64,000 nucleotides of DNA from a virus (IMGVR_UViG_3300025413_001239), one strand, 5' to 3'; positions 11,266 through 37,034 are shown, counted from the stretch's first letter. The notes: generated by a model not told the origin, from the letters alone. Numbers and translations: made by a program.

Positions 11266-11315
11266 AAAAAAACTTGACAAATTAAAAAACTTTTCGTATA
11301 TTTGCATATATTTAT
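11266..11315 (+). promoter_or_regulatory. conserved promoter of tRNA operon 1
   Basis: TTGACA (11274)-17 bp-TATATTTG (11297), followed by ATATTTATT. Confidence 0.85.
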
Positions 11316-11339
11316 TAATAACGAACAAAAATTATCACA

Positions 11340-11441
11340 ATGATAGCAAACATAAACAATATGATTAATTCGATAAATTGGAGACATAATAGTCGCTCAA
11401 TTAATCAAGTCATGCTATCTAGTGATGTTAATAAAATATAA
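11340..11441 (+). CDS. leader peptide 1, MIANINNMINSINWRHNSRSINQVMLSSDVNKI
   Basis: Manually translated 33 aa ORF between promoter and terminator; 27 of 33 residues match downstream tRNA identities. Confidence 0.8.
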   Translation: MIANINNMINSINWRHNSRSINQVMLSSDVNKI

Positions 11442-11462
11442 CAAATTAAATCACAAATAACG

Positions 11463-11500
11463 AAAAGCCTCTGACTCATACGAATCAGAGGTTTTTTTTT
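11463..11500 (+). terminator. attenuator terminator, tRNA operon 1
   Basis: GCCTCTGA/TCAGAGGT stem plus T9. Confidence 0.9.
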
Positions 11501-11504
11501 ACCC

Positions 11505-11678
11505 ATGTCAGAAGAAATACGATATAAGAAATTAGGTGTTGTAAAACAAAAAGACTTGGATGCTGATTTTGATTCGATATACGATAAGTATAAGAGTATT
11601 GCTTTAGAACTTGGTTTAACAGGTGATTTAAAGTTTGTAAAAGAAAAGGGTAAAGTAATAATTTACATAGCTATTTGA
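11505..11678 (+). CDS. 57 aa hypothetical protein, first gene after attenuator 1
   Basis: Manual translation MSEEIRYKKLGVVKQKDL...IYIAI*. Confidence 0.6.
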   Translation: MSEEIRYKKLGVVKQKDLDADFDSIYDKYKSIALELGLTGDLKFVKEKGKVIIYIAI

Positions 11679-11694
11679 CATTTAGGAAAAACAC

Positions 11695-11795
11695 ACGTAA
11701 ATGACCGAGTGGTCGAAGGTGGTAGGCTCCAACCCTACTGAGATATATAACATTTATGTTAGGTCTCCGCATAGGTTCAAATCCTATTTTACGTG
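11695..11795 (+). tRNA. tRNA-Trp(CCA) with long variable arm
   Basis: GTAGG-CTCCAAC-CCTAC; ATAGG-TTCAAAT-CCTAT; about 30 nt variable hairpin. Confidence 0.8.
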
Positions 11796-11805
11796 CAAAA
11801 TATAT

Positions 11806-11972
11806 TGGTAGGTGATGAAATTAGGAATTATATTCCGATGGCAGACATGCCCAATTGTCTCTTGGGTGGTGATAACGAGATAGATAAACAATACAGGGTT
11901 GACCACTAGCTTGCAAGCGTTAATGTTGTTTATTGAATCGCACCGTGGATGGTTCGAATCCTCCTCTACCAG
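11806..11972 (+). tRNA. giant tRNA-Asp(GTC)-like gene (167 nt)
   Basis: TGGTAGG/TCTACCA acceptor, G73; CCCAA-TTGTCTC-TTGGG; extra D-loop hairpin and about 77 nt variable hairpin. Confidence 0.65.
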
Positions 11973-12016
11973 CAATAGTTTACTTGGACAACGTTCTTAA
12001 AATCGGAGTCCGTCAT

Positions 12017-12099
12017 GGAGAGTGGCACCCAAGGTGGGTAACTAGACTTGAAATCTAGGCCAAGGTAAAAACTTGAGGTTTCGATTACTTCACCATCCG
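12017..12099 (+). tRNA. tRNA-Ser(TGA)
   Basis: CTAGA-CTTGAAA-TCTAG, long variable arm; two acceptor-stem mismatches. Confidence 0.7.
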
Positions 12100-12127
12100 C
12101 AATTTTGGTTGTTTTTTACTTTTTTTT

Positions 12128-12216
12128 GGAGAAATAAGGAGGGTAATGGTGGACCCCGTCCGTTTGCTAAACGGAAACCCATTAAGTTGGGCACGTTTCG
12201 ATTACGTATTTCTCCG
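12128..12216 (+). tRNA. tRNA-Ser(GCT)
   Basis: GGAGAAA/TTTCTCC; TCCGT-TTGCTAA-ACGGA; type II variable arm. Confidence 0.85.
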
Positions 12217-12219
12217 CTG

Positions 12220-12305
12220 GATATATTGGCAGAGTGGTTTAATGCAATTTGCGTGAAGCAAATGGTCCTTAAAGGGCCCACAGGTTCGAATCCTGTATAT
12301 TATCT
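12220..12305 (+). tRNA. type II tRNA, possibly Ser(TGA), atypical
   Basis: Good D, variable and T arms; loop CGTGAAG lacks U33; bulged acceptor. Confidence 0.5.
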
Positions 12306-12312
12306 CTAAATA

Positions 12313-12387
12313 TGGGTTTCGAAGCTTTAAGGTGAAGCGCAAGTTTGTGGCACTTGAGAACTCGGTTCGATACCGTGCGTTACCCCA
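12313..12387 (+). tRNA. tRNA-His(GTG)
   Basis: CAAGT-TTGTGGC-ACTTG; CGG-TTCGATA-CCG. Confidence 0.8.
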
Positions 12388-12419
12388 AAATTGTTTTAAG
12401 TAATTAACTGTTAAAAAAT

Positions 12420-12492
12420 GGGTAGTTAGTTCAACTGGTAGAGCACTGTTCTGATACGACAGCCGTTACAGATTCGACTTCTGTACTACCCA
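12420..12492 (+). tRNA. tRNA-Ile(GAT)
   Basis: GGGTAGT/ACTACCC; CTGTT-CTGATAC-GACAG. Confidence 0.85.
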
Positions 12493-12497
12493 CAAAT

Positions 12498-12570
12498 TGG
12501 TCTTTAGCTCAATTGGTAGAGCAAGATACTCATAATATCGAGGTAATGGGTTCGATTCCCGTAGGACCAA
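12498..12570 (+). tRNA. tRNA(CAT), elongator Met or lysidine-type Ile2
   Basis: TGGTCTT/AGGACCA; GATA-CTCATAA-TATC. Confidence 0.85.
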
Positions 12571-12594
12571 CATAATATTCTTCCATGGTGAAAT

Positions 12595-12666
12595 GGCTTG
12601 GTAGCTCAAAGGTGGAGCATTCGTTTGTTAAACGACAGGTTGAGATATCGTAATTCTCCCAAGCCG
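12595..12666 (+). tRNA. tRNA-Asn(GTT)
   Basis: GGCTTGG/CCAAGCC; TCGT-TTGTTAA-ACGA; non-canonical T loop. Confidence 0.8.
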
Positions 12667-12734
12667 CAAATTAACTTTTTTTGTTAATTATTTGACTTTT
12701 TGTTCGAACTGTGTATATTTATAATAAAGAATAT

Positions 12735-13481
12735 ATGAAAGAAAAAATATTAGAATTAAGGAAAAATGGGTTATCAATAAATGAAATAGTTGAAGAGTTA
12801 AAGTGTGCTAAAAGTACTGTTTCATACCATATAAATAAAAACGGTTTAGGTGGTATTAGAAATAGGTTCTTAAAAGGTGTTAGTGATGAAACGATAAATA
12901 AAATTAAAATTTTTAGATTAGAGTCTAAAACATATAATGAAATTTTAGAGTTAATTGACATAAGTGAGGATAAATTAAAAAAAATTTGTCGATTATTTGA
13001 GATAAATAATAGTACTGGTGGTTTTAAACTTAAAGATGTTGATAAAGATGAGGTTATAAAGTATTATTTATCTGTAAAATCAATACGAAAAACTGCTGAT
13101 TATTTTAATATTAGTAGAGACACAGTTAAAAAATATATACCTGACAATCTTATCTTAATTAAAGATAAAATAACCAAATCACAATCAGTTATTAATTGGC
13201 GTAAAAGAACAAAAATTAAATTAATTGATTATAAAGGTGGTTGTTGTGAAAAGTGTGGTTATAATAAATCTACATCAGCATTACAATTTCATCATTTAAA
13301 CCCTAAAGAAAAGGATTTTCAAATTGGTGGTTCAAGTTATTCATTTGAAAATCTAAAAAAAGAAGTTGATAAATGTATATTAGTATGTGCAAATTGTCAT
13401 ATCGAAATACATGAAGAATTAAGGATTTGTAGCTCAGAGGCAGAGCATTCGTTTGTTAAACGACAGGTCGAGATATCGTAA
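12735..13481 (+). mobile_element. HNH homing endonuclease with HTH domains; C-terminus reads through a duplicated tRNA-Asn
   Basis: CEKCGY...LQFHHLNP...CILVCANCHIEIH. Confidence 0.85.
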
Positions 13482-13495
13482 TTCTCCATTAGCGC
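13430..13495 (+). pseudogene. 5'-truncated duplicate of tRNA-Asn(GTT)
   Basis: GTAGCTC..GAGCATTCGTTTGTTAAACGACAGGTCGAGATATCGTAATTCTCC nearly identical to 12601-12660; acceptor 5' strand missing. Confidence 0.75.
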
Positions 13496-13499
13496 ACAT

Positions 13500-13569
13500 T
13501 GCGTAGGTTATCGGAATACAACCATCTCTCATAAGGAAGGTCAAGGCGGTTCAGCTCCGCTCTACGCAA
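13500..13569 (+). tRNA. tRNA(CAT)
   Basis: TGCGTAG/CTACGCA; CTCATAA loop; GCGG-TTCAGCT-CCGC. Confidence 0.7.
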
Positions 13570-13572
13570 CAT

Positions 13573-13645
13573 GGTTCCATAGTTCAATGGATTAGAACAG
13601 ATGATTACGAATCATCCGATAAGCGTTCGAGTCGCTTTGGGACTA
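13573..13645 (+). tRNA. tRNA-Arg(ACG)
   Basis: GATGA-TTACGAA-TCATC. Confidence 0.9.
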
Positions 13646-13646
13646 C

Positions 13647-13757
13647 AGTATAGTAAATGTGATATAAGAAGAACTAATATCAGGTGGAGTTAGTGTCCGT
13701 ACCACGTTAAAAAATTGTGATGATTATACAAGGTGTTGTCGAGTACACAACTATACT
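13647..13757 (+). ncRNA. cloverleaf-like RNA of unknown identity
   Basis: AGTATAGT/ACTATACT closing stem with four internal hairpins, including T-arm-like GTGT-tgtcgagt-ACAC. Confidence 0.45.
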
Positions 13758-13761
13758 ATTT

Positions 13762-13787
13762 GGTCTTGTCGTTCAATGGATTAGGAC
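13762..13787 (+). pseudogene. 5' half of disrupted ancestral tRNA-Arg
   Basis: GGTCTTG acceptor strand pairs with CGAGACC at 14474-14480. Confidence 0.75.
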
Positions 13788-13795
13788 TACTATAA

Positions 13796-13868
13796 GCTTC
13801 TATGGTGTAACTGGATAACACTTTTGCCTTCTAAGCAAACTTTCTGAGTTCGAATCTCGGTAGGAGCA
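13796..13868 (+). tRNA. tRNA-Arg(TCT)
   Basis: GCTTCTA/TAGGAGC; TTTGC-CTTCTAA-GCAAA. Confidence 0.9.
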
Positions 13869-13921
13869 CTAGTTAAATGGATATTTTTTTTCTTTTTCCA
13901 TTTAACGATATATTTATTAGT

Positions 13922-14458
13922 ATGGAAAAAGAATTTTTAATTGATTGTATTAATAAAGGGTTAAGTCTAAAAAAAATAAGTAAATTATGTGGTAAAGCAC
14001 CTAGTACAATAACATATTGGTTAAATAAATTTAATTTAAAAACTAATAATTTGTCGTTTAAAGTTAAAGGAAAAATTGATTATAATAATCAAAGATGTTG
14101 CCCAAAATGTAAAATTACTAAAGAATTAAATGAATTTTATAATAGACGTGATAAAATAGGTAGTTCAGTTTATTGTAAAACTTGTACCAATAAACAAGTT
14201 TTAGATAGACAACGGGAACTTAAGCAACAAGCTGTTGATTATAAAGGTGGGTATTGTATAATATGTGGTTATAATAAATGTAATGCGGCGTTAGAATTTC
14301 ATCATTTAGAACCAGATAAAAAAGATTTTAGCATTAGTCAATTAAAAAAATATGCCTTTACTGAAAATATAAAAAAAGAATTAGATAAATGTATTTTGTT
14401 ATGTTCTAATTGTCATAGAGAATTTCATTCTGGTATTTTAATTCTAAGCAAACTATAG
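13922..14458 (+). mobile_element. HNH homing endonuclease
   Basis: CPKC, CKTC, CIICGY..CNAALEFHHLEP...CILLCSNCHREFH. Confidence 0.85.
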
Positions 14459-14481
14459 CAGTTCGAATCTGCTCGAGACCA
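14442..14481 (+). pseudogene. 3' half of disrupted ancestral tRNA-Arg(TCT)
   Basis: TTCTAAGCAAACT (also at 13829-13841), AGCAG-TTCGAAT-CTGCT, CGAGACC-A. Confidence 0.75.
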
Positions 14482-14491
14482 CATTTTTTAT

Positions 14492-14579
14492 GGAGAGCAA
14501 ACCCTGACGGTGAGGGGGTCCGCCTGCTAAGCGTGAAGTTCGGCGAAAGCTGGATTCGGTTCAACTCCGATGTTCTCCG
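14492..14579 (+). tRNA. tRNA-Ser(GCT), second copy
   Basis: GGAGAGC/GTTCTCC; CTGCTAA loop; long variable arm. Confidence 0.8.
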
Positions 14580-14600
14580 CATTTTTCATTTGTTGTTTTT

Positions 14601-14624
14601 AAGGGTACTTCGGTACCCTTTTTT
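14601..14624 (+). terminator. end-of-operon terminator, tRNA operon 1
   Basis: AAGGGTAC-TTCG-GTACCCTTTTTT. Confidence 0.9.
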
Positions 14625-14647
14625 ATTTTATGGGATATTTATAAAAT

Positions 14648-15292
14648 ATGCAAAAAGCTAAATTTATACTTCACGAACAAATGAATCGTATTCATGAATT
14701 ATCTGGAAACAATATGGTTTCAGGTAAACATCTAGTTGTTGTTGATATTCAACCAGAATACGAACAATGGTGCAGTCACATTCTCCCAGAATTTGTTGAT
14801 TTTTTAAATGAAAACTATGAAACCCTTTCCAGATTAACTTTCCTATATAATGGTGATAGTCTTGGTATGGTTTCTGAGGGTAACTATCAAAATTGGTGGT
14901 TCGATAATGGCTTAAGTGAAGATGTAATTTACAGTTCAAGGTTTTATGATAAAGGCTACGCATTTTTTAGGTATTGTATTGATGAGGGTATAGATGATGA
15001 AACTATTGTTAACCTAATAAAGTACATGCTTGAAAAGGATGTATTTGATACTAGAGAATTAGATGAGGAATTCTGGGATGAGTATGTCGAAAGATATGGT
15101 GCTGCGCATATCAGAGAATTATTAGAATTTGCTGGGGACTCAATGAATATACCAGACCTTATGGATGAATTAAAAAATTATACAAACATAATATTATGTG
15201 GTGGTGGGATTGATGAGTGTCTTAAAGAGGTTGAAATAGCTCTTCAAGTACTTAACAAACACTATACTGTTTTAACAAAATATACATACTAA
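14648..15292 (+). CDS. isochorismatase/cysteine hydrolase-like protein
   Basis: LVVVDIQ and ILCGGGIDEC patterns. Confidence 0.45.
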   Translation: MQKAKFILHEQMNRIHELSGNNMVSGKHLVVVDIQPEYEQWCSHILPEFVDFLNENYETLSRLTFLYNGDSLGMVSEGNYQNWWFDNGLSEDVIYSSRFYDKGYAFFRYCIDEGIDDETIVNLIKYMLEKDVFDTRELDEEFWDEYVERYGAAHIRELLEFAGDSMNIPDLMDELKNYTNIILCGGGIDECLKEVEIALQVLNKHYTVLTKYTY

Positions 15293-15954
15293 TGAAAATT
15301 TTAAACATATTTAAAAAACTCATATTAGAAAATGAAATACCTCTTGATGAGGAGTATCCATTAAGTTGGAGTATCGAAGAATTTAAGAAGTTAAGAAATT
15401 TTAGTCAAAGGGTTAAGTATTGTGAAACGCATCTAAAGCGTATATCATCAGGTTCTGGTAGAATTGCTTATAAGATTGATGAAGAAAAGGTTCTTAAATT
15501 GGCTAAAAATGAAAAGGGTGTTTCACAGAATCAAGCTGAAATTCAACAATCTGATGATTATTACTTACAACCAATACTAGCAAATGTATTTGAATACGAT
15601 GAGAATGGGTTATGGGTTGAAATGGAACTAGCGAGAAAATTAACTGCTGGTGATTTTAAAAGACTTGTTGGTTTTAATTTTAAAGACTATGCAGAATTAT
15701 TACATAATCACGGTGTTGTAGCCAATCTTGGTCGTGGTTTTAAATACTCAATAGATAAAGAATTATCAGATGCTATGTGGGATAATGATTTTATATCTAG
15801 TATACTAGATTATATTGGTAGTTGGGGTGTTCCATCGGGTGATTTAGAACGTCTTAATACATATGGTATAGTTAAAAGAGATGGTAAGGATACTATTGTA
15901 ATTGTTGATTATGGCTTAACTGAAGAAGTTCTTAATAAACATTATAAAAGATAA
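15292..15954 (+). CDS. atypical protein kinase-like protein
   Basis: SSGSGRIAY loop, VLKLAK, GDL and IVDYG motifs. Confidence 0.55.
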   Translation: MKILNIFKKLILENEIPLDEEYPLSWSIEEFKKLRNFSQRVKYCETHLKRISSGSGRIAYKIDEEKVLKLAKNEKGVSQNQAEIQQSDDYYLQPILANVFEYDENGLWVEMELARKLTAGDFKRLVGFNFKDYAELLHNHGVVANLGRGFKYSIDKELSDAMWDNDFISSILDYIGSWGVPSGDLERLNTYGIVKRDGKDTIVIVDYGLTEEVLNKHYKR

Positions 15955-16003
15955 ATTTGTTTAATTAAAATTTATGTCATATATTTGCTTTTTAAAAACA
16001 ATT

Positions 16004-16321
16004 ATGGACATACATAAGAAAATTAAAGACTTTGAAGATAGTTTAAAAATCTTTGCACACAAATTGGCTGAGCAAGGTAAAGAAACTGAGGTCGCAGCTA
16101 AAATTCTTGAGAAACACATAAAGGGTATTGATGTTACACCTGAAGAAGATGTGTTATTAAAACAAAACATTTACGATACCTTAAAAATAGCTGGAATTGG
16201 TATACCATTTATGCTGATACCAGGTGCTAGTGTCATATTACCAGCGTTAATTATACTAGCGAAAAAAAACAATATTAATTTATTACCGTCAAAATTTATT
16301 GAAGATGAAAAAAGTAATTAA
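16004..16321 (+). CDS. hypothetical membrane-associated protein
   Basis: Hydrophobic IPFMLIPGASVILPALI segment. Confidence 0.65.
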   Translation: MDIHKKIKDFEDSLKIFAHKLAEQGKETEVAAKILEKHIKGIDVTPEEDVLLKQNIYDTLKIAGIGIPFMLIPGASVILPALIILAKKNNINLLPSKFIEDEKSN

Positions 16322-17237
16322 GCAAATCTTAAGAGAAAACACTGAGAAGAATATTTTAGGTATTACCGTAACAAGACCTAATCAAGAGTTGATTATTATG
16401 AGAGGAATCTCTGGTAGTGGTAAAAGCACAATGGCTAAATCATTAGTTAAGGGTGGTGTCATACATTCAACCGATGACTTAATAGAAGCAACTGGTGATT
16501 ATAATGGATTCTTTGCTAAAATGATAGAAGCAAATAACTTTGCTGATTTAAGTCGTATGCACTCTAATAACCTCAAGAATGCGATGAAATCTATGGATAA
16601 TGGTATAAGTCCAGTCATAATAGATAACACGAATTTAAGACCTAGTGAGGCTAAACCATACGTAATGTATGCGTTAGAGATAGGCTATGCTGATGATAAT
16701 ATTAAAATTGTTGATGTTGGTACTGGTGGGTTAAGTGCTGAAGCTTTAGCGGCTAGAAATTCTCATGGTGTTCCATTAGAGAATATTCAACGAATGATTA
16801 ATACTTATAATGGTGTCGGCCCTTTAACTCTCAATAAAATTATTGAGGCTAGTGACATGTATAAATCATCTAATGTTTTATATTCTTGTGTTTTATTAGA
16901 TGATAATTCACGTAATTTATTATTATTAACATTTGCCGATGTTATACCGAATGGATGGAAAACGATAGCACATCATATGACAATTGTTTTTGGTAAGGGT
17001 ATTGACGATAAAAATGAGTTGGGTAAAGAAGTTGTATTAACAGTTACAAACGTTGGATGGAATGATAAAGCAATAGCTGTTTTGGTTGATGGTTATCCAT
17101 CTAAAAATGCTAATCCACATATTACATTAGCTATTAATCCAGATGGTGGTAAACCTAAGGATTCTAATGAAATTACAGATTGGAAAAAAATTAGACCATT
17201 TAAAATAAATGGTGTTGTGACAGAAATTAAAAAATAA
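16305..17237 (+). CDS. polynucleotide kinase-like P-loop fused to 2H phosphoesterase (RNA end-healing)
   Basis: RGISGSGKST, STDD, IIDNTN; C-terminal HMT and HIT motifs. Confidence 0.8.
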   Translation: MKKVIKQILRENTEKNILGITVTRPNQELIIMRGISGSGKSTMAKSLVKGGVIHSTDDLIEATGDYNGFFAKMIEANNFADLSRMHSNNLKNAMKSMDNGISPVIIDNTNLRPSEAKPYVMYALEIGYADDNIKIVDVGTGGLSAEALAARNSHGVPLENIQRMINTYNGVGPLTLNKIIEASDMYKSSNVLYSCVLLDDNSRNLLLLTFADVIPNGWKTIAHHMTIVFGKGIDDKNELGKEVVLTVTNVGWNDKAIAVLVDGYPSKNANPHITLAINPDGGKPKDSNEITDWKKIRPFKINGVVTEIKK

Positions 17238-17283
17238 ATTTGTTTGTTTGGTTTCTATTCTGTATATTTGCAAAAAGTTTTTT

Positions 17284-17658
17284 ATGACAAAAGAAGAAAG
17301 AAGGCTTGACCTAAGCGGTAAGCTATTAAAAATGGGTGAGTCTTTAATATTAGAGGGTCGAGATTCTATGGATGGTTGTGTCATGGAAACTGGTAGTGCG
17401 TTAATTTTATTGGCTAATATCATTGAATCAGAAGATGATATGTTTGTTTTTGGTGAATTTGTATCTATGTTTTCAGCTAAGAAAGTATTAGAGGAAATGG
17501 AAAATAAGAAAAAACCTAATACAACTGAAGATTTACTAAAGGAAATTCTTGATTCATTTAAGAATGTCGGTAGTGATTTACCAAAAGAAACACCCAAAAA
17601 GACTCGTAGACCAAGAAAAAAAAGAAACGACAATGATGAACCAGAATCTGGTTCATAA
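17284..17658 (+). CDS. hypothetical protein
   Basis: ORF with basic tail behind a TATATTTG promoter. Confidence 0.7.
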   Translation: MTKEERRLDLSGKLLKMGESLILEGRDSMDGCVMETGSALILLANIIESEDDMFVFGEFVSMFSAKKVLEEMENKKKPNTTEDLLKEILDSFKNVGSDLPKETPKKTRRPRKKRNDNDEPESGS

Positions 17659-17681
17659 TTTTTAATATTAAAAAATAAAAT

Positions 17682-18272
17682 ATGTTAGCAATAGTAGAAT
17701 ACATAAAGAAAAATGGTTTAGATAATGCTATCGAAACTTTTAATTTAAAGGCTAAATTATACGAAAATAAGGTTCACATTAAATATGACCAAATAGGTTC
17801 GGATATGTCTCTTAAGGAGGTTCAAGAATGTCGTGGACTTATCCTAGATAGAAATACATTTGATGTAATCTCAATGTCCTTTTTCAAGTTCTTTAATAAC
17901 GGTGAAACTAATGCTGCTAAGATAGACTGGGATACAGCTCATGTATTTGAAAAAGTTGATGGTTGCCTTGATGAAAATACGTTGATAACGACTAATGAAG
18001 GTGTTAAAACGATTAAGGAAATTTGTGAAGAAAAACTTAATTGTAAAGTCTTGTCATATTGGGTTAATAGTAATGAGATTATCTTTGATGATATAATTGG
18101 ATGGTCAATTAAGGATAATATTAATGATTGGTATGAAATTAAATTGGATGACGAAACTTCAATTAAACTGACTGGTAATCATAAGGTTTGGTTACCAAAG
18201 CTAAATTGTTATAGACAAGTTTCAGATTTAACGGAAGCGGATGAATTCTTATTAAGTACTAAAAAAAATTAA
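17682..18272 (+). CDS. T4 Rnl1-like RNA ligase N-part plus N-terminal split intein (17964-18272)
   Basis: ECRGLIL, FFKFFN, EKVDG|CLDENTLI (block A), LTGNHKV (block B). Confidence 0.9.
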   Translation: MLAIVEYIKKNGLDNAIETFNLKAKLYENKVHIKYDQIGSDMSLKEVQECRGLILDRNTFDVISMSFFKFFNNGETNAAKIDWDTAHVFEKVDGCLDENTLITTNEGVKTIKEICEEKLNCKVLSYWVNSNEIIFDDIIGWSIKDNINDWYEIKLDDETSIKLTGNHKVWLPKLNCYRQVSDLTEADEFLLSTKKN

Positions 18273-19610: not shown

Positions 19611-19618
19611 AAAATAAA

Positions 19619-19650: not shown

Positions 19651-19670
19651 CACTCTAAATAAAATAAACA

Positions 19671-22330: not shown

Positions 22331-22342
22331 AAGTAAGTTTAT

Positions 22343-29751: not shown

Positions 29752-29796
29752 ACCAAATAATATGGATTTATGTTTAAATTGTAAATATTTATTGGT

Positions 29797-30384
29797 ATGA
29801 GAAAATTAATAAAAAAACTCTTAAGGGAAAATTTGTATGAAGCTATCACACAAAAACCAATGTTTGCTAGAGGTGTTGAACATCAAATTTATTTATCAAA
29901 GTCAGACCCAAATATAGTCTTTAAAGTTGGATACCCTAAATCTGTTGATAGATTCGTATCGGTGTTTACATCTAATCCTGAGTATTTTCCAAAAATTTTT
30001 AAAGTTGGTAATTTAACATGGCAGGGTAAACCATTTAAATATGCTAAAATTGAAAGACTAAATACTGAAAGAGTCATTAGTGAGTGGAATTATATTACTG
30101 GTAAATTAGATGAAGTTGGTATATTAGATACTGACTCAAATTTATTAGAAGATGTTAGCGATATTTTTAAATCGGCCATAACTGAAGATTCAGAATATGA
30201 AACGTATATTACATCTAAACTACAACAGCATGATAAAAAAGCCTACAAGTTATTCATAGATTGGCTTAATTTTTTACATCATGTAAATTCGATAGTTGAA
30301 CCAGTAAAACATAAAATTCTTGATATTCATAAGTATAATTTTGGTTATGATTCCAGTGGTAAAATGAAGTGTTTAGACATATAA
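29797..30384 (+). CDS. atypical kinase-like protein
   Basis: G.EHQIY, VFKV, DIHKYNFG, CLDI motifs. Confidence 0.55.
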   Translation: MRKLIKKLLRENLYEAITQKPMFARGVEHQIYLSKSDPNIVFKVGYPKSVDRFVSVFTSNPEYFPKIFKVGNLTWQGKPFKYAKIERLNTERVISEWNYITGKLDEVGILDTDSNLLEDVSDIFKSAITEDSEYETYITSKLQQHDKKAYKLFIDWLNFLHHVNSIVEPVKHKILDIHKYNFGYDSSGKMKCLDI

Positions 30385-30398
30385 AAAAATATTTTTAA

Positions 30399-30450
30399 AA
30401 AAAAACTTGACAATTCAAAAACTTTTCGTATATTTGCAGTATATTTATTA
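30399..30450 (+). promoter_or_regulatory. conserved promoter of tRNA operon 2
   Basis: TTGACA (30407)...TATATTTG (30429), then ATATTTATT. Confidence 0.85.
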
Positions 30451-30473
30451 AAAGAGATTAAAAGATAACAAAA

Positions 30474-30554
30474 ATGAGAAATTTAAACAACATATTGGTC
30501 CTTGTGTTATGTGTGCTAGTGTTAACTAGTTCTACTGGGTATTCCATGTTTTAA
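30474..30554 (+). CDS. leader peptide 2, MRNLNNILVLVLCVLVLTSSTGYSMF
   Basis: 26 aa ORF between promoter and terminator; six Leu (TTA, TTG, CTT, CTA) and a Cys. Confidence 0.8.
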   Translation: MRNLNNILVLVLCVLVLTSSTGYSMF

Positions 30555-30578
30555 ATTTAACATTTAAAAATAATTGAG

Positions 30579-30609
30579 AAGCTCAGTCCGAAAGAACTGA
30601 GCTTTTTTT
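30579..30609 (+). terminator. attenuator terminator, tRNA operon 2
   Basis: AAGCTCAGT/ACTGAGCTT stem plus T7, 3 nt before tRNA-Cys. Confidence 0.9.
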
Positions 30610-30611
30610 AT

Positions 30612-30683
30612 GTGCCTTTGTCCGAGCGGTTTAGGTAGAGTTCTGCAAAAGCTCTTACGGCGGTTCAAATCCGTCAAGGCACT
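30612..30683 (+). tRNA. tRNA-Cys(GCA)
   Basis: GTGCCTT/AAGGCAC; GAGTT-CTGCAAA-AGCTC. Confidence 0.9.
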
Positions 30684-30910
30684 CTTTAAAATTAAAAACA
30701 ATGGAAAAAAAATGACATCAAAAAAGCATTGTATAAGGAAAAGCCATTAGCCACCTTATCACATTATGAAGAAGGATGGAATTGGCATAACCGAAACCTA
30801 CCCAACCATAAGTGGAGAGAGTATAAGAGTTGGAAGTATAATAGAAAAACTAAGTGGAAATGAAAAAGAGATTTGATGCCTTGTAACACTCTAATGTGTA
30901 ACAATGCAAA

Positions 30911-31180
30911 ATGAAAAAAATGAACAAGAAGCTGTATGATAGAACAGTTGACAACAAAACGTACAAGTTATGCCATTATCAACAAGAAAATATTTGTTGT
31001 TTAAGATGTGCGAAAAGAAGAAGAAGAAATTATTTTTATTATGACTATGACGGTGGGAAACATTGTTATCCAAGTTGGAAATTAGTAAGTAAAAATAAGA
31101 AGCAATGGATGCCAAAAAAACTTAAGATTGAGGAAGAAAAACCCAATCGTTGGTATAGTAGAGGTGACATTACTTGGTAA
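30911..31180 (+). CDS. small basic Cys/Trp-rich protein in tRNA operon 2
   Basis: CLRC and SWKLVSKNKKQW pattern. Confidence 0.6.
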   Translation: MKKMNKKLYDRTVDNKTYKLCHYQQENICCLRCAKRRRRNYFYYDYDGGKHCYPSWKLVSKNKKQWMPKKLKIEEEKPNRWYSRGDITW

Positions 31181-31276
31181 TTGCGACATCAAGACATATT
31201 AAAGTGTCGTGATAGGTTTAAAAGTTACAAATTGTTGCAATAATTGCGACATTTCACCAGATAAATGGTGAAATAT

Positions 31277-31361
31277 GGGGGTGTGGTGGAATGGTAGACA
31301 CGCAGGTCTTAAAAACCTGTGGACCGTAAGGTCCGTGTGAGTTCGACTCTCATTGCCCCTA
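31277..31361 (+). tRNA. tRNA-Leu(TAA)
   Basis: CAGGT-CTTAAAA-ACCTG; type II. Confidence 0.9.
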
Positions 31362-31366
31362 CACAA

Positions 31367-31475
31367 CTGTGTTTCTGATAGGGTTGCTCAGTAGGAGCTC
31401 CAGTAAACCTTATCCGTTGATGAATAGTGGTCATGACATGAGTTCATTTTTCTGGTACGACAATCCAGAATACGG
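31367..31475 (+). ncRNA. cloverleaf-like RNA of unknown identity
   Basis: Closing CTGTGTT/AATACGG; GATAGGGTT/AACCTTATC arm; TCAT-GAC-ATGA hairpin; CTGG-tacgacaat-CCAG T-arm-like. Confidence 0.4.
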
Positions 31476-31561
31476 CCCTATGAGCAAATTGGTAAAGCTT
31501 GCGGTCTAAGAAACCGTGGAAAACATTAGAAACGTTCTCAGTTCAAATCTGAGTAGGGCTA
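31474..31561 (+). tRNA. tRNA-Leu(AAG)
   Basis: GGCCCTA/TAGGGCT; GCGGT-CTAAGAA-ACCGT; type II. Confidence 0.85.
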
Positions 31562-31563
31562 CT

Positions 31564-31785
31564 ATGAGTTTTAATTTTGATGAAAAGAAAATTGGTGATA
31601 TAGTTCAGATGACGGATTATTTTATAAGTATAAATCCTAGTGAACATATTCAGGAATTTAAAGATTGTGAAGGCGAAGTTATTGGTTATAGTGATGAAGG
31701 TTATACTGATTACTTAGATGTTAGATGGCAACCTAGTGGGTTAAGATATGGTTATCATTGGGTACATTTAAAACTAGTCCAATAA
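31564..31785 (+). CDS. hypothetical protein
   Basis: ATG just after tRNA-Leu(AAG). Confidence 0.65.
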   Translation: MSFNFDEKKIGDIVQMTDYFISINPSEHIQEFKDCEGEVIGYSDEGYTDYLDVRWQPSGLRYGYHWVHLKLVQ

Positions 31786-31958
31786 TGGCTAAAAAAGTAT
31801 CAAAAGAAGTTCAGATTAAACATTCTGAGGATTATGTTGAATTTCTAATTAAGCGGTTAAATTCTAACAACTATAAGTTAGCAGCAACTAAGGAAGAGTA
31901 TGCGGCAACTAAAGCTAAATTAGATAAAGAGCGATTGATACTTAAGTTGTTAAAATAA
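31785..31958 (+). CDS. hypothetical protein
   Basis: MAKKVSKE..., coupled to the previous stop. Confidence 0.65.
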   Translation: MAKKVSKEVQIKHSEDYVEFLIKRLNSNNYKLAATKEEYAATKAKLDKERLILKLLK

Positions 31959-31959
31959 T

Positions 31960-32041
31960 GGGGGTATGCTGGAAATGGTATACAGCTACGGTTTAGACCC
32001 GTAGGTCAAAAGATTTGCAAGTTCGAACCTTGTTACCCTCA
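31960..32041 (+). tRNA. tRNA-Leu(TAG)
   Basis: CTACGG-TTTAGAC-CCGTAG; type II. Confidence 0.9.
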
Positions 32042-32043
32042 CA

Positions 32044-32127
32044 AAGATGATTTCAGCAAATAAATAGGATAAAAATTTACACTTAAAATGCAAATCGAAA
32101 GGGTTCAAATCCCTAAAAATCATCTTG
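32044..32127 (+). ncRNA. CAGCAA-family RNA, copy D (anticodon-like and T arms)
   Basis: AAGATGA-ttt-CAGCAA ... CTTAAAA loop ... AGGG-TTCAAAT-CCCT ... TCATCTT-G. Confidence 0.65.
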
Positions 32128-32199
32128 TTTTTTATTAACATATTAAATAATAGTAGAGTTTATATTTACATTTTCATAAACTCTACTATATTTATTAAT

Positions 32200-32868
32200 A
32201 TGAGAAAAGATATTATAGAAAAAGAAAATGATGTTTTACAAATGATTGCAAATAATGACCCTAAAGCAATGATTTGTAGGTTTTTAAATTGTAGACCAGA
32301 GGTTCTTGAAAAATATTTAAAATTAAAGGGTATTAAATATAGTGGTAATCGTAGAATGGTTGGTCGGAGAAATCATCCGCATAAAAAATCTGTGGATGAA
32401 TATTTGGCTCAAGATAGGATATCAATACATAAATTAAGAATTAAACTTATAGAAGAGGGTATTAAAAAAAATGAGTGTGAAAATTGTAAATTAACTGAAT
32501 GGTGTGGAAGTAAAATTCCTTTAGAGTTGCATCATATAGATGGAAATAAATTAAATAACGATTTAAATAACCTACAAATCTTATGTCCAAATTGCCATGC
32601 GTTAACACCAAATCACGCTGGAAAAAAGAATAAAAAGAAATTTGAAGATAAAGCTATCCATAAAAGAATAAAACTTTGTAAATGCGGCAAGACAATAAAA
32701 AAAACTAGTAATGAATGTCTTAGTTGTTATCATGAAAAACAACGTAAGATTAAAAATGCTAATTTAACGGAATTAATAGATAGTGTTAATAAAATTGGTT
32801 ATTTAGCGACTGGTAGAAAATATGGTGTTAGTGATAACACAATTAGAAAATATATAAACAAAAAATAA
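32200..32868 (+). mobile_element. HNH homing endonuclease with C-terminal HTH
   Basis: CENC..PLELHHIDG...NLQILCPNCHA. Confidence 0.85.
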
Positions 32869-33669
32869 ATGTTTTACGTTATTCAAGAGAATGTCTTTAG
32901 GGAAGAACATTATGATATGTTAATTGATTTAATCAAACGACATAAGTTTGAATATGATATAGTTAAATATCGACCATTTTTAAATGAGATAGTTGCACTT
33001 CCAGTTGAAAATGATGGTGAACAACAAGAAGACGTTATTTATAAAACAGACCGTAAAAATGTTTTTTGTTTCGGTGCTGTTTCAATGGCCAAAGCTGCCA
33101 CAAAGTATGGTTGGAACCCTGGTTCAATGATGAATAAAAACCATGACTATGAAGTATATGGAAAAGCATTTGGATTTGAAAACATGTTAAATGGCGAGGG
33201 TCATGTTATCAATTTTATTGATAAAATACCTATTGATAACTTTTTATTCTTCGCAAGACCAACAAGAGATACGAAGGTTTTTTCAGGACAAATATTTACA
33301 CAAGATTCTTGGAAAGAATACGTTGCTGCTGTTAGACATATCAGTGATGAAACAAAAATTCTTATTTCTCCCTTAAAACAGATTCAACAAGAAGTTAGAT
33401 GCTGGGTTATTGGTGGTAAGATAGTAACTGCAAGTTCATATAAGATAGGTACTCGTGTAGTTTATACCAACTATGATGATGAAACATTCTTTACAGACTT
33501 CGCACAAAAGATGATTGATGTATATCAACCAGCCGAAGCATTCGTTATTGATATTGCCTTGGCTAACGACAAATTGAGTGTCATTGAAATTAATAATATC
33601 AATTCAGCTGGATTTTATGATTGTAATATGGTAAAACTCATAACAGCGTTAGAAAATCATTTTAATTAA
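32869..33669 (+). CDS. ATP-grasp domain protein (DUF4343/R2K-like)
   Basis: FARP..DTKVFSG, EVRCWVI, FVIDIA, VIEINNINSAGFY. Confidence 0.75.
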   Translation: MFYVIQENVFREEHYDMLIDLIKRHKFEYDIVKYRPFLNEIVALPVENDGEQQEDVIYKTDRKNVFCFGAVSMAKAATKYGWNPGSMMNKNHDYEVYGKAFGFENMLNGEGHVINFIDKIPIDNFLFFARPTRDTKVFSGQIFTQDSWKEYVAAVRHISDETKILISPLKQIQQEVRCWVIGGKIVTASSYKIGTRVVYTNYDDETFFTDFAQKMIDVYQPAEAFVIDIALANDKLSVIEINNINSAGFYDCNMVKLITALENHFN

Positions 33670-33692
33670 GCTACTTTCGGGTAGCTTTTTTA
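33668..33692 (+). terminator. intrinsic terminator
   Basis: AAGCTAC-TTTCGG-GTAGCTTTTTT. Confidence 0.85.
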
Positions 33693-33724
33693 TTTTATAG
33701 AAATATTTATATAAAAGTCGTTTA

Positions 33725-36043
33725 ATGAAATTATATAAATTATATTCCCAATTACTTAACGAGGATTTTAAATCACAAACTGTTAATTTTATCAGACAAG
33801 GATTTGAACCAGATATTGTTAAGTCATACATTGATAAATTCAAACACATACGAGATAATAAATACAAAGAAATCTTTGATGAAAATTTAAAAGTATCTGT
33901 ACCTTCAAAAGAAAGGTTAAATATTGATGCTTATAAAAATTTCCATGATTTGGAGGTTGTTGTTGATTATGTATCTGGTAAAAGAGCCGTCAATACCAAT
34001 ATGACAAAAGGCGGTAAAGAAAATATTGAAGTTGATGGAACCCCAATTTATGATGATAAAAATTATGAAGTTTATTATGCTGATACACCTAGAGCTTGTA
34101 TAAAGTATAAGGGTAAATTTCCGTATTCTTGGTGTGTTGCTAGGTCGGATTCAGCGAATATGTTTTACACTTATCGTTTTAAACCCTACGAACCAGCTTT
34201 TTATTTCATTAAGAATAAAAAGGAAACTGATAAGGAATTTAGTCTTTGGAACATGGGTAAGAATGTGTTTCAAGGTAAATTTAGTAACCCTTATCACTTT
34301 TTTGTTATTCAAGTTCCAAAAAATGCAAATATTGATGATAACAAAACACAACAGTATATTGTAACATCAGCAAATAATGATGGTGATAAACAAATGAGTT
34401 GGGATGAAATTATTGCTATAAATCCTAATTTAAATTCAATTAAAGAAGTCTTAGTACCTAAACCACTCAGTGAAGGTGAAAGAAAGAAAATTGAAAGATT
34501 TAAAAATGGTATTAATGATAAGGAATTTGCTAAGTTAACCTATGAAGAAAAAAGAGATTATCTGGATATATACCCAACAATTGGTAGACCAATAACATCA
34601 AAACAATTAAAGGAGTTACCAGATGACCTACTAAATTTATATGTTTCTTTTGGTATTGGTTTAGATGATGAAGGTTTTGAATTTATAAAACCTAAAAAAG
34701 ACATTCTTAAAAGATATGCTCAAATAAGCAAAAGAAAACTTGAAGAATACTTAAAAACAGACAATTATCAGAGAAAACAACTTAAGATGATGTATAGTGA
34801 GTTAATTGTTTTATCCGATGAAGACATTAAGAGTTATTTGGAAAGTTTAAAACCTTATGAGATAAAACAATTTATACGTTTAAATGGTGAAGATAAATTT
34901 GAATTATTAGAAAAGCATTTACCTGATAAATTTGGTGCTCAGTTTCAATCTAATAAACAGCTTATTTTAATGGCCCAGTCTGGTGATGAAGAAGCATTAA
35001 ACAAATTAGCTTCATTAATACCAGAAGATATCGAATTTGATTTTTATGGTAAGTACATAGTATTTGAATTTGACAATACTGATAGTGAAAAGTTAAAAAG
35101 AGAATTAGATAACGATACATTGGATTTTTATAGTAGACTAGATTATAACGAATGGAATAGCAGTTATAATAATGATTATTATTTTGATGATGAATCTTCC
35201 CTAAATGATACTTACGATTTTCATATTGAATCGGTGTTAAAAGATGATGAAACACTAAGAGATGATTTACTTAGAATTGGAATCCAACCAGATTTAGAGT
35301 CTGTTAAGGATTTATTAGTAACATATAAAAAAGATTCATCAATTAAAGAATACATGGAAGAAAAGTATTCAGAAGGTAGAGATAATGCTCAAGAAAAAAC
35401 ATGGGAAAAACTTAGGGATGGTATAAAATCAATAGCTTATATTGATGATTATCGTAATTATAGTGTTTATATTAATGTTGCTTCTTTTGTATTTTACTTG
35501 AACGATAATGAATTTTTAACATCGGATATTGATAATTTTATTACAAAAATGGCATATTTACTTGAAAATATAATGGAGGATAACGACCAAATTAGTTATG
35601 TTGAAAGCATGTATGATGAGGTAAATGAAGGTGGTTATGATTTTACCGTTGGTAATGAAGTAAATGAAAGAGTTAAAAGTGAGATTCAAGATGCCATATA
35701 TGAATTTACATCTCAAGATGATGAAGATGAAACAGATTATGCGAATAATTTAGATTCATCAAAAATTCATAAACTTAAAGGTGAGGTTATTAAATTATTA
35801 AATGATACACTTCGTAATCTAGGTCAATCAGAAACTGCGTCAACAATTGAAAATGACATTGTAAGAATTGATATTGATAGACAAAGATTCCATTTAGATG
35901 GTAAAGTATTTGTTAGTATAACTGACAAACAAAATAATAAAAAACATGATGGTTATGTTTATATAAAAGACTTACCAACTTACTTTAAAAATTATAAATT
36001 GTTTGAAACAATACAAAGAATAAAATCAATAATTAAGTATTAA
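33725..36043 (+). CDS. large hypothetical protein (772 aa), possible virion-packaged protein
   Basis: N-terminal ...LLNE motif, ATATTTAT upstream, YSWC motif, acidic C-half. Confidence 0.8.
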   Translation: MKLYKLYSQLLNEDFKSQTVNFIRQGFEPDIVKSYIDKFKHIRDNKYKEIFDENLKVSVPSKERLNIDAYKNFHDLEVVVDYVSGKRAVNTNMTKGGKENIEVDGTPIYDDKNYEVYYADTPRACIKYKGKFPYSWCVARSDSANMFYTYRFKPYEPAFYFIKNKKETDKEFSLWNMGKNVFQGKFSNPYHFFVIQVPKNANIDDNKTQQYIVTSANNDGDKQMSWDEIIAINPNLNSIKEVLVPKPLSEGERKKIERFKNGINDKEFAKLTYEEKRDYLDIYPTIGRPITSKQLKELPDDLLNLYVSFGIGLDDEGFEFIKPKKDILKRYAQISKRKLEEYLKTDNYQRKQLKMMYSELIVLSDEDIKSYLESLKPYEIKQFIRLNGEDKFELLEKHLPDKFGAQFQSNKQLILMAQSGDEEALNKLASLIPEDIEFDFYGKYIVFEFDNTDSEKLKRELDNDTLDFYSRLDYNEWNSSYNNDYYFDDESSLNDTYDFHIESVLKDDETLRDDLLRIGIQPDLESVKDLLVTYKKDSSIKEYMEEKYSEGRDNAQEKTWEKLRDGIKSIAYIDDYRNYSVYINVASFVFYLNDNEFLTSDIDNFITKMAYLLENIMEDNDQISYVESMYDEVNEGGYDFTVGNEVNERVKSEIQDAIYEFTSQDDEDETDYANNLDSSKIHKLKGEVIKLLNDTLRNLGQSETASTIENDIVRIDIDRQRFHLDGKVFVSITDKQNNKKHDGYVYIKDLPTYFKNYKLFETIQRIKSIIKY

Positions 36044-36091
36044 AACTAGTTCTTAAAGTCACTAAAAAAAAAATTTTTTAAAAATAATTCA

Positions 36092-36142
36092 AAAAAAACT
36101 TGACAATTCAAAAACTTTTCGTATATTTGCATATATTTATTA
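36092..36142 (+). promoter_or_regulatory. conserved promoter of tRNA operon 3
   Basis: TTGACA (36100)...TATATTTG (36122), then ATATTTATT. Confidence 0.85.
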
Positions 36143-36165
36143 ACAACAAGTAACAATTAAAAGAT

Positions 36166-36264
36166 ATGAAAAAGGCATATACATATTATCAACCGAAAAC
36201 GCAAGGGGGCAAAACTCCTAATAGGCTGGGTGTATCTTTTTCTGATGAAGATGATTGTAAGTAA
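36166..36264 (+). CDS. leader peptide 3, MKKAYTYYQPKTQGGKTPNRLGVSFSDEDDCK
   Basis: 32 aa ORF between promoter and terminator; residues 5-18 are only Y/T/Q/P/G/K. Confidence 0.8.
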   Translation: MKKAYTYYQPKTQGGKTPNRLGVSFSDEDDCK

Positions 36265-36284
36265 ACAATTAGTAAGATATAAGT

Positions 36285-36321
36285 AAACCCCAGTCTGATG
36301 AAAATTCAAACTGGGGTTTTT
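36285..36321 (+). terminator. attenuator terminator, tRNA operon 3
   Basis: AAACCCCAGT/ACTGGGGTTT stem plus T tract, 7 nt before tRNA-Pro. Confidence 0.9.
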
Positions 36322-36327
36322 AATTTT

Positions 36328-36402
36328 CGGGAAGTTCCACAGATGGCTATATGGGCTTGTTTTGGAGACAAGTGTTCGCTCGTTCGAATCGAGTTTTCCC
36401 GA
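36328..36402 (+). tRNA. tRNA-Pro(TGG)
   Basis: CGGGAAG/TTTCCCG; CTTGT-TTTGGAG-ACAAG. Confidence 0.85.
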
Positions 36403-36415
36403 CACAGATTGGTTG

Positions 36416-36448
36416 GTACCGTAGACAGCAAAAATAAGGAACGGTATA
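36416..36448 (+). ncRNA. possible minimal CAGCAA-family hairpin, copy F
   Basis: GTACCGT-aga-CAGCAA ... ACGGTAT; same spacing as the other copies. Confidence 0.35.
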
Positions 36449-36451
36449 AAA

Positions 36452-36539
36452 CTAAGTGTGTAGTCAATCGAAGACGACTCCCTTTGGAGCGGAGAATAGC
36501 TGTAAAAGGCTTATGCAGGTTCGAGCCCTGTCACTTAGA
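36452..36539 (+). tRNA. tRNA-Pro(TGG)-like with Tyr-like hairpin in the variable arm
   Basis: CTAAGTG/CACTTAG; CTCC-c-TTTGGAG-c-GGAG; variable arm contains CTGTAAA; CAGG-TTCGAGC-CCTG. Confidence 0.65.
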
Positions 36540-36546
36540 CTAAAAT

Positions 36547-36618
36547 TGGGTTGTGGTGTAATGGTAACTACGTGTGGTTTTGGTCCACAAGTTTGGGGTT
36601 CGAGTCCCTACAACCCAA
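36547..36618 (+). tRNA. tRNA-Gln(TTG)
   Basis: TGGGTTG/CAACCCA; TGTGG-TTTTGGT-CCACA. Confidence 0.9.
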
Positions 36619-36703
36619 CAAAGTAAAGAAGTAATTGGGTTAGCTGTTTTCCGTGGCTGGTCTGATGAAGGTTAAGTCCTTATGATTAAATAACGGATAA
36701 ATT

Positions 36704-36775
36704 GGGATAGCCAGCAGGGTTCTGAAGACAGTCTGTAAAACTGAACTTCGTGTGTTTCGAGTACACCCTATCCCA
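36704..36775 (+). tRNA. tRNA-Tyr(GTA), short variable loop, atypical D arm
   Basis: GGGATAG/CTATCCC; CAGT-CTGTAAA-ACTG. Confidence 0.7.
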
Positions 36776-36780
36776 CATTT

Positions 36781-36862
36781 GGGTCAGTCGCATAGAGGCA
36801 ATTGCCGCGGACTGTAAATCCGCTCTCTTCGGAGTTCACAGGTTCGAGTCCTGTTTGGCCCA
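36781..36862 (+). tRNA. tRNA-Tyr(GTA)
   Basis: GCGGA-CTGTAAA-TCCGC; type II. Confidence 0.9.
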
Positions 36863-36870
36863 CAAAAAAT

Positions 36871-36941
36871 GCCTCCAAAGCATATATGGTGATGTACCTG
36901 ACTTGTAATCAGGGAAGTTGATTCGAGTTCAACTGGAGGCT
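36871..36941 (+). tRNA. tRNA-Thr(TGT)
   Basis: GCCTCCA/TGGAGGC; CCTGA-CTTGTAA-TCAGG. Confidence 0.9.
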
Positions 36942-36962
36942 CAAGAGTCTTATATAAAAAAT

Positions 36963-37034
36963 GCGGATATAGCACAGTGGTTAGTGTTGGGGTCTTCCAA
37001 ACCTCAGACGTCAGTTCGAATCTGACTATCCGCT
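36963..37034 (+). tRNA. tRNA-Gly(TCC)
   Basis: GCGGATA/TATCCGC; GGGGT-CTTCCAA-ACCTC. Confidence 0.9.

Follow-up and report, generated by a model that had tools for sequence, protein, structure and literature searches.

Our analysis of a 64,000-nucleotide (nt) stretch of the phage IMGVR_UViG_3300025413_001239 (hereafter the window, with coordinates counted from its first letter) indicates that three of its tRNA operons are probably gated by ribosome-mediated, leader-peptide transcription attenuators, each leader carrying the codons read by the tRNAs encoded behind it. All three units follow one layout, in which a common promoter is succeeded by a short open-reading frame (ORF) of 26-33 codons, a strong intrinsic terminator and a tRNA array, an arrangement proposed in a first-pass annotation of the window and borne out here by mapping of ORFs, promoters and folds. 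This architecture, the matching of leader codons to arrays, an alternative RNA pairing specific to each unit and the lack of a separate promoter for the tRNAs are evident from the sequence and from comparison with relatives. The features of the three units are:

11249-11306 (core 11274-11306), + strand: promoter of unit 1, with A-tracts, TTGACA at 11274-11279 and the -7 box TATATTTG at 11297-11304
11340-11441, + strand: leader ORF 1, ATG start, 33 codons plus stop, with homologues in relatives L004, L005, L006, L014 and L037
11467-11500, + strand: attenuator terminator 1, 5′ arm 11467-11477, 3′ arm and T9 11482-11500, -15.5 kcal/mol
11695-14580, + strand: tRNA array 1 (ARAGORN/Rfam), with two HNH endonuclease ORFs inside
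30407-30438, + strand: promoter core of unit 2, upstream A-tract and Bacteroidota-type -7 box
30474-30554, + strand: leader ORF 2, ATG start, 26 codons plus stop
30576-30609, + strand: attenuator terminator 2, GC-rich hairpin, -14.6 kcal/mol, T7
30612-32042, + strand: tRNA array 2, Cys-gca, Leu-taa, Leu-aag and Leu-tag
36100-36131, + strand: promoter core of unit 3, upstream A-tract and Bacteroidota-type -7 box
36166-36264, + strand: leader ORF 3, ATG start, 32 codons plus stop
36285-36321, + strand: attenuator terminator 3, GC-rich hairpin, -18.1 kcal/mol, T5
36328-37035, + strand: tRNA array 3, Pro-tgg, a second, 89-nt Pro/Ser-like tRNA, Gln-ttg, Tyr-gta, Thr-tgt and Gly-tcc

Leader codons mirror the downstream tRNAs

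The window encodes 21-24 tRNA genes, all on the + strand (ARAGORN, Rfam). Array 1 begins with a class-II-like tRNA with a CCA anticodon, an Asp-like gene with an insert, Ser-tga-like and Ser-gct-like genes, Ser-tga and His, and continues with Ile, Met/Ile2 (cat), Asn, Arg-acg, Arg-tct and Ser-gct. As first claimed, residues 4-22 of leader 1 use the amino acids of this array only (N, I, M, S, W, R and H), and codons 1-22 are nearly all cognate to it. Codons 8-17 of leader 2 encode Leu, Val or Cys and contain LVLVLCVLVL, with TTA, TTG, CTT and CTA fitting the three Leu tRNAs and TGT fitting Cys, whilst leader 3 contains YTYYQPKTQGGKTP and encodes Tyr, Thr, Gln, Pro and Gly, plus Lys, across codons 5-18.

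The best 14-residue segment of each leader lies within the amino-acid set of its array at 14/14, 7/14 and 12/14 positions (leaders 1, 2 and 3, respectively), a score reached by 0/339, 1/439 and 0/349 of the segments of equal length taken from proteins encoded in the window. In leaders 2 and 3, which were likewise proposed to mirror their arrays, Val (leader 2) and Lys (leader 3) have no tRNA here though they do in relatives. At the strict codon level every anticodon class has a cognate leader codon (10/10, 4/4 and 5/5, in total 19/19); given the codon usage of the window, such full coverage would arise by chance with P = 0.0011, 0.034 and 0.027, and the cognate codon counts with P = 0.00015, 0.009 and 0.014. 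Of the leader codons compared, 148/252 are cognate in frame 0, compared with 62 and 52 in the other frames, and leader against array matching is block-diagonal, each leader fitting its own array type and not the others. Leader codons are thus enriched for the cognate array beyond chance, in a frame- and array-specific manner.

Leaders track arrays in relatives

DNA searches of GenBank phages with arrays 2 and 3 gave tRNA-level matches only and no close relative, and a protein-based locus search with a neighbouring 772-amino-acid ORF gave nothing. Using the extended promoter (A-tracts, a TTGACA-like box and the TATATTTG -7 box, four copies of which occur in the window) to search public viral (IMG/VR) and metagenome contigs, we found 48 loci (denoted by L numbers), and nearly all extended-promoter matches share the layout described above. 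They yielded 25 distinct leader variants, in all of which the ATG and in-frame stop are kept and lengths differ by whole codons. Where the arrays are complete, the leader codons are cognate almost without exception, as in codons 8-17 of L001 (Cys/Val/Leu), 2-18 of L029 (Pro/Gln/Tyr/Thr/Gly/Lys) and 1-21 of L004 (type 1). The relatives' type-2 arrays include Val tRNAs (L001, L013, L024) and their type-3 arrays Lys, Gly-gcc and Thr-ggt tRNAs (L003, L029); by comparison, the Val trio (between Cys and Leu, 30684-31277) and the Lys/Gly-gcc/Thr-ggt tail (after 37035) are gone from the window. The unmatched Val and Lys codons of the window leaders are accounted for by these relatives, because their arrays carry Val and Lys tRNAs, and the window phage seems to have lost tRNAs of this kind yet kept the leader codons.

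Leaders of other types behave in the same way. A new, Phe/Asp/Ala/Glu-rich type is found before Phe/Asp/Ala/Glu arrays (L019, L027, L038, L047), and a mixed type before a Leu/Arg/Pro/Asn/Tyr array (L021, L045). Diverged type-3 leaders (L022, L030, L042) have kept their T/Y/Q/P/K/G composition in a scrambled order, and within leader types most amino-acid changes remain inside the set of the array. Since composition is kept and order is not, selection acts on the codons present rather than on the peptide sequence; reasoning from the ratio of non-synonymous to synonymous changes (dN/dS) was set aside as unsuited to leaders whose amino acids change freely within the array's set. Across related phages, homologous and non-homologous leaders alike therefore track their own arrays, a co-variation that the first-pass annotation had expected.

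The same design recurs behind other promoters. The nearest GenBank records by the RNase R-like protein (47% identity) are the uncultured phages LR745206.1 and LR756502.1 (635 and 642 kb), which we take to stem from the huge-phage study. Both share the layout with different promoters: in LR745206.1, 23/25 of the first leader codons are cognate to an Asn/Arg/Leu/Val/Ile/Thr/Met array, and in LR756502.1 the residues E, Y, I, G and A abound in the leader of a Glu/Tyr/Ile/Gly/Ala array. Attenuators, leaders and terminators are unmentioned in the huge-phage paper (PMC7162821). In the cultured Cellulophaga phage phi4:1 (KC821632.1; L051), a duplicated promoter with TAtgTTTG boxes is followed by two codon-matched leader/terminator units (L051 4564-4632 and 5524-5607), whose leaders A and B occupy 87065-87133 and 88025-88108 of KC821632.1. 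Leader codons 4-14 of unit A read QRLHLQELEQP, before exactly Pro, Glu, Gln, His, Leu, Leu and Arg tRNAs. The unit B leader uses T, K, G, I, V, D, A, R and Y before Ala, Lys, Ile, Gly, Met, Asp, Thr, Val, Arg, Met and Tyr tRNAs, and lies within the annotated hypothetical gp075, which is probably mis-annotated. We rejected gp076, before Ser/Trp/Phe tRNAs, as a further unit, having found no convincing leader/terminator unit there. When seven leaders were tested against seven arrays, 1/5040 permutations, the true assignment only, attained the observed number of cognate codons.

Each leader fits its own terminator arm

According to the first-pass annotation, a 3′ segment of each leader is complementary to the 5′ arm of its terminator. 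We refer to the leader segment that pairs with this arm as region 2, which in the window comprises:

11407-11417, + strand: region 2 of unit 1, AGUCA/UGACU plus 3 base pairs with the arm, -7.9 kcal/mol, 0.18 of 300 shuffles as good, weak alone
30533-30545, + strand: region 2 of unit 2, ACUGGGU..UUC, -9.5 kcal/mol, 0.09 of 300 shuffles as good, moderate
36221-36234, + strand: region 2 of unit 3, AGGCUGGGU, -15.8 kcal/mol, 0 of 300 shuffles as good, strong

Judged one by one, the complementarity stands for unit 3, is marginal for unit 2 and is weak for unit 1, where region 2 pairs with its own arm better than with any unrelated arm. In most units, relatives included, the best partner of the arm lies at nt +55 to +81 from the ATG (codons 19-27), right after the matched codons; the main exceptions are L021, in which it lies later in a longer leader, and L038, at codons 12-14. 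The sequence of region 2 changes with that of the arm, giving the leader segment/arm pairs GGCUGGG/CCCAGUC, ACUGGGC/GCUCAGU, AACUGGGU/ACCCAGUU, GGACUGG/CUAGUCC, AGUCAGGU/ACCUGAUU, UGUUCGG/CCGAACA, CUGAGGGUU/AACCCUCAG (LR745206.1) and GGGAGGU/GCCUCUC (phi4:1). Leaders pair with their own arms at -10.7 kcal/mol vs. -6.9 kcal/mol with unrelated arms (permutation p = 0.00045, assignment shuffled over seven distinct arm classes, with mismatched pairs given the same optimisation as own pairs), and RNAalifold predicts the region 2:arm helix on type-2 transcripts ending before the 3′ arm.

To model the position of the ribosome in all 25 units and in the three window units, transcripts ending at the terminator loop were folded with a 30-nt footprint masked codon by codon. 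In these folds region 2 holds the arm for as long as the A-site codon is no later than ~16-20 (25 in the long L021 leader), and the arm is free with the ribosome further on or at the stop codon; in every leader type the cognate-codon run ends at this limit. In silico, stalling at a matched codon is thus expected to give read-through, and unimpeded translation to give termination. In units 1 and 2, a helix of the 5′ untranslated region (UTR) and start codon with the 3′ end of the ORF (1:2, the anti-antiterminator) would sequester region 2 when no ribosome is present, whilst the folds did not predict this helix for unit 3 and many relatives. The antiterminator uses the 5′ arm of the terminator, and the two helices would exclude one another.

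The arrays lie behind the terminators

The consensus TAnnTTTG is the sigma-A -7 element of Bacteroidota (PMC7366714), and because the promoter -7 boxes fit it, the host is probably a member of that phylum. The short -7 box alone is found at ~15 ordinary genes of the window. A further -7 box, CGTATATTTGCA, at 11212-11227, 80 nt 5′ of the unit 1 promoter, may form a tandem promoter. The 5′ UTRs of the three units are A-rich and have no Shine-Dalgarno site, and 20-22 nt separate each leader ORF from its hairpin.

From the T-tract to the first tRNA there are 3 nt in unit 2 (tRNA-Cys) and 7 nt in unit 3 (tRNA-Pro). Between promoter and array end, the + strand of the three units holds no further TAnnTTTG box but one at 31572, at a density over the whole window of 1.27 per kb. 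The space between terminators and tRNAs is too short for a promoter and contains no -7 box, hence the arrays would be transcribed only through the terminators. Promoters for the tRNAs downstream of the terminators, which the first-pass annotation had named as evidence against its own proposal, were not found: the first tRNA, or in unit 1 the 57-codon ORF, follows 3-7 nt after the T-tract, with no TAnnTTTG box in between.

A proposed tRNA-sensing attenuator and the points against it

In the mechanism that we favour, transcription would begin at the strong host-type (Bacteroidota sigma-A) promoter and a ribosome would translate the 26-33 codon leader, in which codons ~2-20 are those read by the downstream tRNAs. 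Slow decoding of any matched codon would stall the ribosome 5′ of region 2 (codons 20-24), leaving this segment free to pair with the emerging 5′ arm of the terminator, and RNA polymerase would read through into the tRNA genes; with fast decoding, the ribosome would instead come to lie over region 2 or at the stop codon, the terminator hairpin would form and transcription would stop. tRNA output is predicted to be high early in infection or when those tRNAs are scarce, and low once they are plentiful. As the regulated products would be the very molecules sensed, each tRNA block would receive its own negative feedback on tRNA supply. From sequence features we infer that the leaders are translated, that ribosomes stall on them, that read-through is regulated and in which direction it responds, and the suggestion that the logic of the trp, his and leu attenuators had been placed on tRNA operons is supported by codon enrichment, by the relatives, by the own-arm helix and by promoter absence. 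Leader-peptide attenuation in the presumed hosts is plausible by analogy with Flavobacterium psychrophilum, which is without Shine-Dalgarno sites and has attenuation signatures 5′ of amino-acid operons (PMC9723704).

Several results count against this mechanism. Matching is imperfect, in that Val (leader 2), Lys (leader 3) and some Gly and Thr codons have no tRNA in the window arrays. A fourth copy of the promoter and a lone tRNA-Phe lack a leader. Taken alone, neither the unit 1 antiterminator nor that of the Phe/Asp/Ala/Glu type outperforms shuffled sequence. When full transcripts are folded with the ribosome mask the terminator hairpin is always the most stable structure, therefore the switch must be kinetic, and only folds ending before the 3′ arm are informative. 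Finally, in many units the untranslated transcript (ending before the 3′ arm) pairs region 2 with the arm, which predicts read-through when there is no translation, unlike the trp model.

Alternative explanations

The same attenuator could serve specifically in counter-defence, by sensing host tRNA depletion by anticodon nucleases or similar and switching on replacements. Phage tRNAs are known to counter tRNA-targeting defences, a sensor of this design would answer the loss of any tRNA species in the leader, and the leaders cover every isoacceptor of the array. However, the units have no defence or anti-defence gene linked to them in the window, the arrays span nearly all amino acids, reaching beyond the few anticodons known as nuclease targets, and the role is unneeded, as supply feedback and the difference between phage and host codon usage explain the design equally well. 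We consider so specific a role unlikely, albeit worth keeping in view, and the link to anticodon nucleases is speculation, compatible with the data and without support in the window.

Decidedly improbable, in our judgement, is that the attenuators report amino-acid starvation, i.e. uncharged tRNA, and not tRNA abundance. A shortage of amino acids would be unrelieved by more tRNA, and the leader codons match single isoacceptors (three Leu anticodons, two Arg and two Ser classes) as expected if tRNA species are monitored, even though the architecture is that of amino-acid attenuators and a stalled ribosome is blind to the difference between a missing and an uncharged tRNA.

A promoter, ~190 nt and a terminator are also the layout of a gene for a small RNA or small protein, and the terminator is in every case the most stable fold. 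The short ORF and terminator of each unit might be an independent gene of this sort, with the terminator leaky and unregulated and the tRNAs made by constitutive read-through. This would leave unexplained why leaders carry the codons of their own arrays in seven array types, why composition is kept with peptide order scrambled, and why region 2 fits each unit's own arm, and we give it very little credence. A translation-independent element, in which leader RNA binds tRNAs directly as T-box leaders do in sensing tRNAs and controlling terminators, can be dismissed as highly implausible, as there is no T-box or other non-tRNA Rfam family in the window, the conserved ATG, in-frame stop, in-frame length changes and frame-specific codon signal point to translation, and 10-20 different codons in a run cannot each bind tRNA without a ribosome.

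Comparison with known regulators

Multivalent attenuators are familiar from enterobacteria, in the ilvGMEDA leader (Ile/Leu/Val codons) and the thr leader (Thr/Ile), alongside trpL, hisL, leuL and pheL. In the phage units, too, a short ORF close to the promoter is rich in regulatory codons, the regulated genes lie behind an intrinsic terminator, the 5′ arm of that terminator can enter an alternative helix depending on where the ribosome stands, and one leader covers several amino acids. The phage units differ in that the targets are tRNAs and not enzymes, so that the product is the sensed molecule, in that a single leader spans up to 7-8 amino acids and 10 anticodon classes, and in that the 1:2 anti-antiterminator is not evident in every unit; they are also phage-encoded, with Bacteroidota-type promoters, no Shine-Dalgarno sites and no sequence homology to Rfam leader families. 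At the gathering threshold Rfam returned tRNA matches only across the window, with no T-box and no Trp, His, Leu or Thr leader family, and at E <= 1 it returned nothing other than tRNA in 9790-12320.

Closer in purpose is the pheM leader of E. coli pheST (phenylalanyl-tRNA synthetase), where a leader peptide also controls a component of decoding through the decoding speed of cognate codons, but there the target is a synthetase, a single amino acid is involved and the locus is chromosomal. T-box riboswitches likewise sense tRNA status through a terminator/antiterminator switch 5′ of translation-related genes; they need no ribosome to bind uncharged tRNA directly, each senses one tRNA, and a specifier loop and T-box motif are conserved among them, whilst the phage units show none of these features. 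The arrays themselves are like those described in other phages, where clustered tRNA genes interspersed with homing endonucleases are discussed as codon-usage compensation or counter-defence. The published accounts of phage tRNA arrays that we found treat them as simply expressed genes, with no codon-matched leader or attenuator before them, and our literature search found no description of attenuation of tRNA genes. To our knowledge, the regulation of phage-borne tRNAs is essentially unstudied, the arrays usually being seen as passively expressed cargo.

The class of mechanism is therefore a textbook one, extended to a new class of target; what would be new is the control of tRNA genes, the direct feedback of a product on the sensor that governs it, and the extent of multivalence. 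If true, these would be the first transcription attenuators known on tRNA genes, more multivalent than any other (up to 10 anticodon classes in one leader), and the phage would be gauging how fast particular codons are decoded during infection and setting its tRNA output accordingly. More generally, large and medium phages of Bacteroidota likely possess a ribosome-based "tRNA homeostat", in which modular leaders evolve to list the codons of the downstream tRNAs and each block would be transcribed in proportion to its own tRNA shortfall, defence-imposed shortfalls included. The simple sequence signature could be used to annotate phage tRNA operons and to predict which tRNAs are co-regulated, and the leaders may offer compact, programmable multi-codon sensors for synthetic biology. 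The proposal is directly testable, as the cultured pair of Cellulophaga baltica and phage phi4:1 carries two units.

Leaderless tRNA loci and other features

Three further features on the + strand adjoin the tRNA loci:

9767-9799, + strand: fourth extended promoter copy, followed by a structured RNA and two tRNA-Met genes (10214-10377), with no leader ORF
11505-11678, + strand: 57-codon ORF with no family assigned, beginning 5 nt past the T-tract of terminator 1 and kept in all type-1 relatives
14601-14624, + strand: closing terminator of array 1 (fold)

The conserved structured RNA of the Met unit lies within 9800-10213, and its core (10027-10170) consists of a GAAUCA/UGAUUC helix, a 47-nt A/U-rich loop and then a three-stem junction, with compensatory changes at six base pairs across six relatives. 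It matched no Rfam family, and might regulate the Met tRNAs in some other way; a "specifier" AUG in its loop was dropped as a candidate, as it is not conserved. The lone tRNA-Phe (60700-60808; tRNA at 60736) has a plain -7 box promoter and neither leader nor terminator, whilst in relatives the Phe tRNA lies within the leader-controlled Phe/Asp/Ala/Glu array.

Since the 57-codon ORF begins so near the T-tract, it would be made by read-through only, under the same control as the tRNAs; searches of Pfam and PHROGs gave nothing for it, nor for most neighbouring ORFs. HNH/HTH homing-endonuclease ORFs at 12711-13481, 13877-14458 and 32125-32868 lie within or beside the tRNA arrays, and having no -7 box of their own they would be co-regulated with the tRNAs.

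Several tRNA genes are unusual. The first of array 1 (11695-11796, 102 nt, Rfam 53 bits) combines a class II-like long extra arm with a CCA (Trp) anticodon, and is kept in L004, which has a normal tRNA-Trp too; the window has the odd one only. The second (~11808-11985) is a tRNA-like gene with an acceptor stem and T-arm, the loop TTGTCTC (Asp anticodon GTC) and an insert of ~85 nt, whose anticodon stem covaries between the window and L004, and which neither ARAGORN nor Rfam called. What the first-pass annotation listed as W and D in array 1 are, respectively, this class-II-like gene and this insert-bearing one. The Ser-tga-like and Ser-gct-like genes (12017-12100 and 12131-12217) appear only under relaxed ARAGORN settings. 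Over-long tRNAs include an 87-nt tRNA-Met (10291-10377) and the 89-nt tRNA of array 3 (36452-36540), called Pro here and Ser-gga in relatives.

Among the leader units generally, most leader types have an in-frame AUG 1-4 codons past region 2, many units have an ATG directly after the terminator T-tract, and many relatives have a small GGGG-loop-CCC hairpin in the 5′ UTR. The N-terminal pattern M-(K/R)-x-(I/L/F)-N-N-I is common to many leaders of different types, which suggests that the units arose by duplication. Elsewhere in the window the phage also encodes a full DnaJ (6254-7264), an RNase R/II-like exoribonuclease (46411-48360) and a UvdE UV endonuclease (57663-58694).

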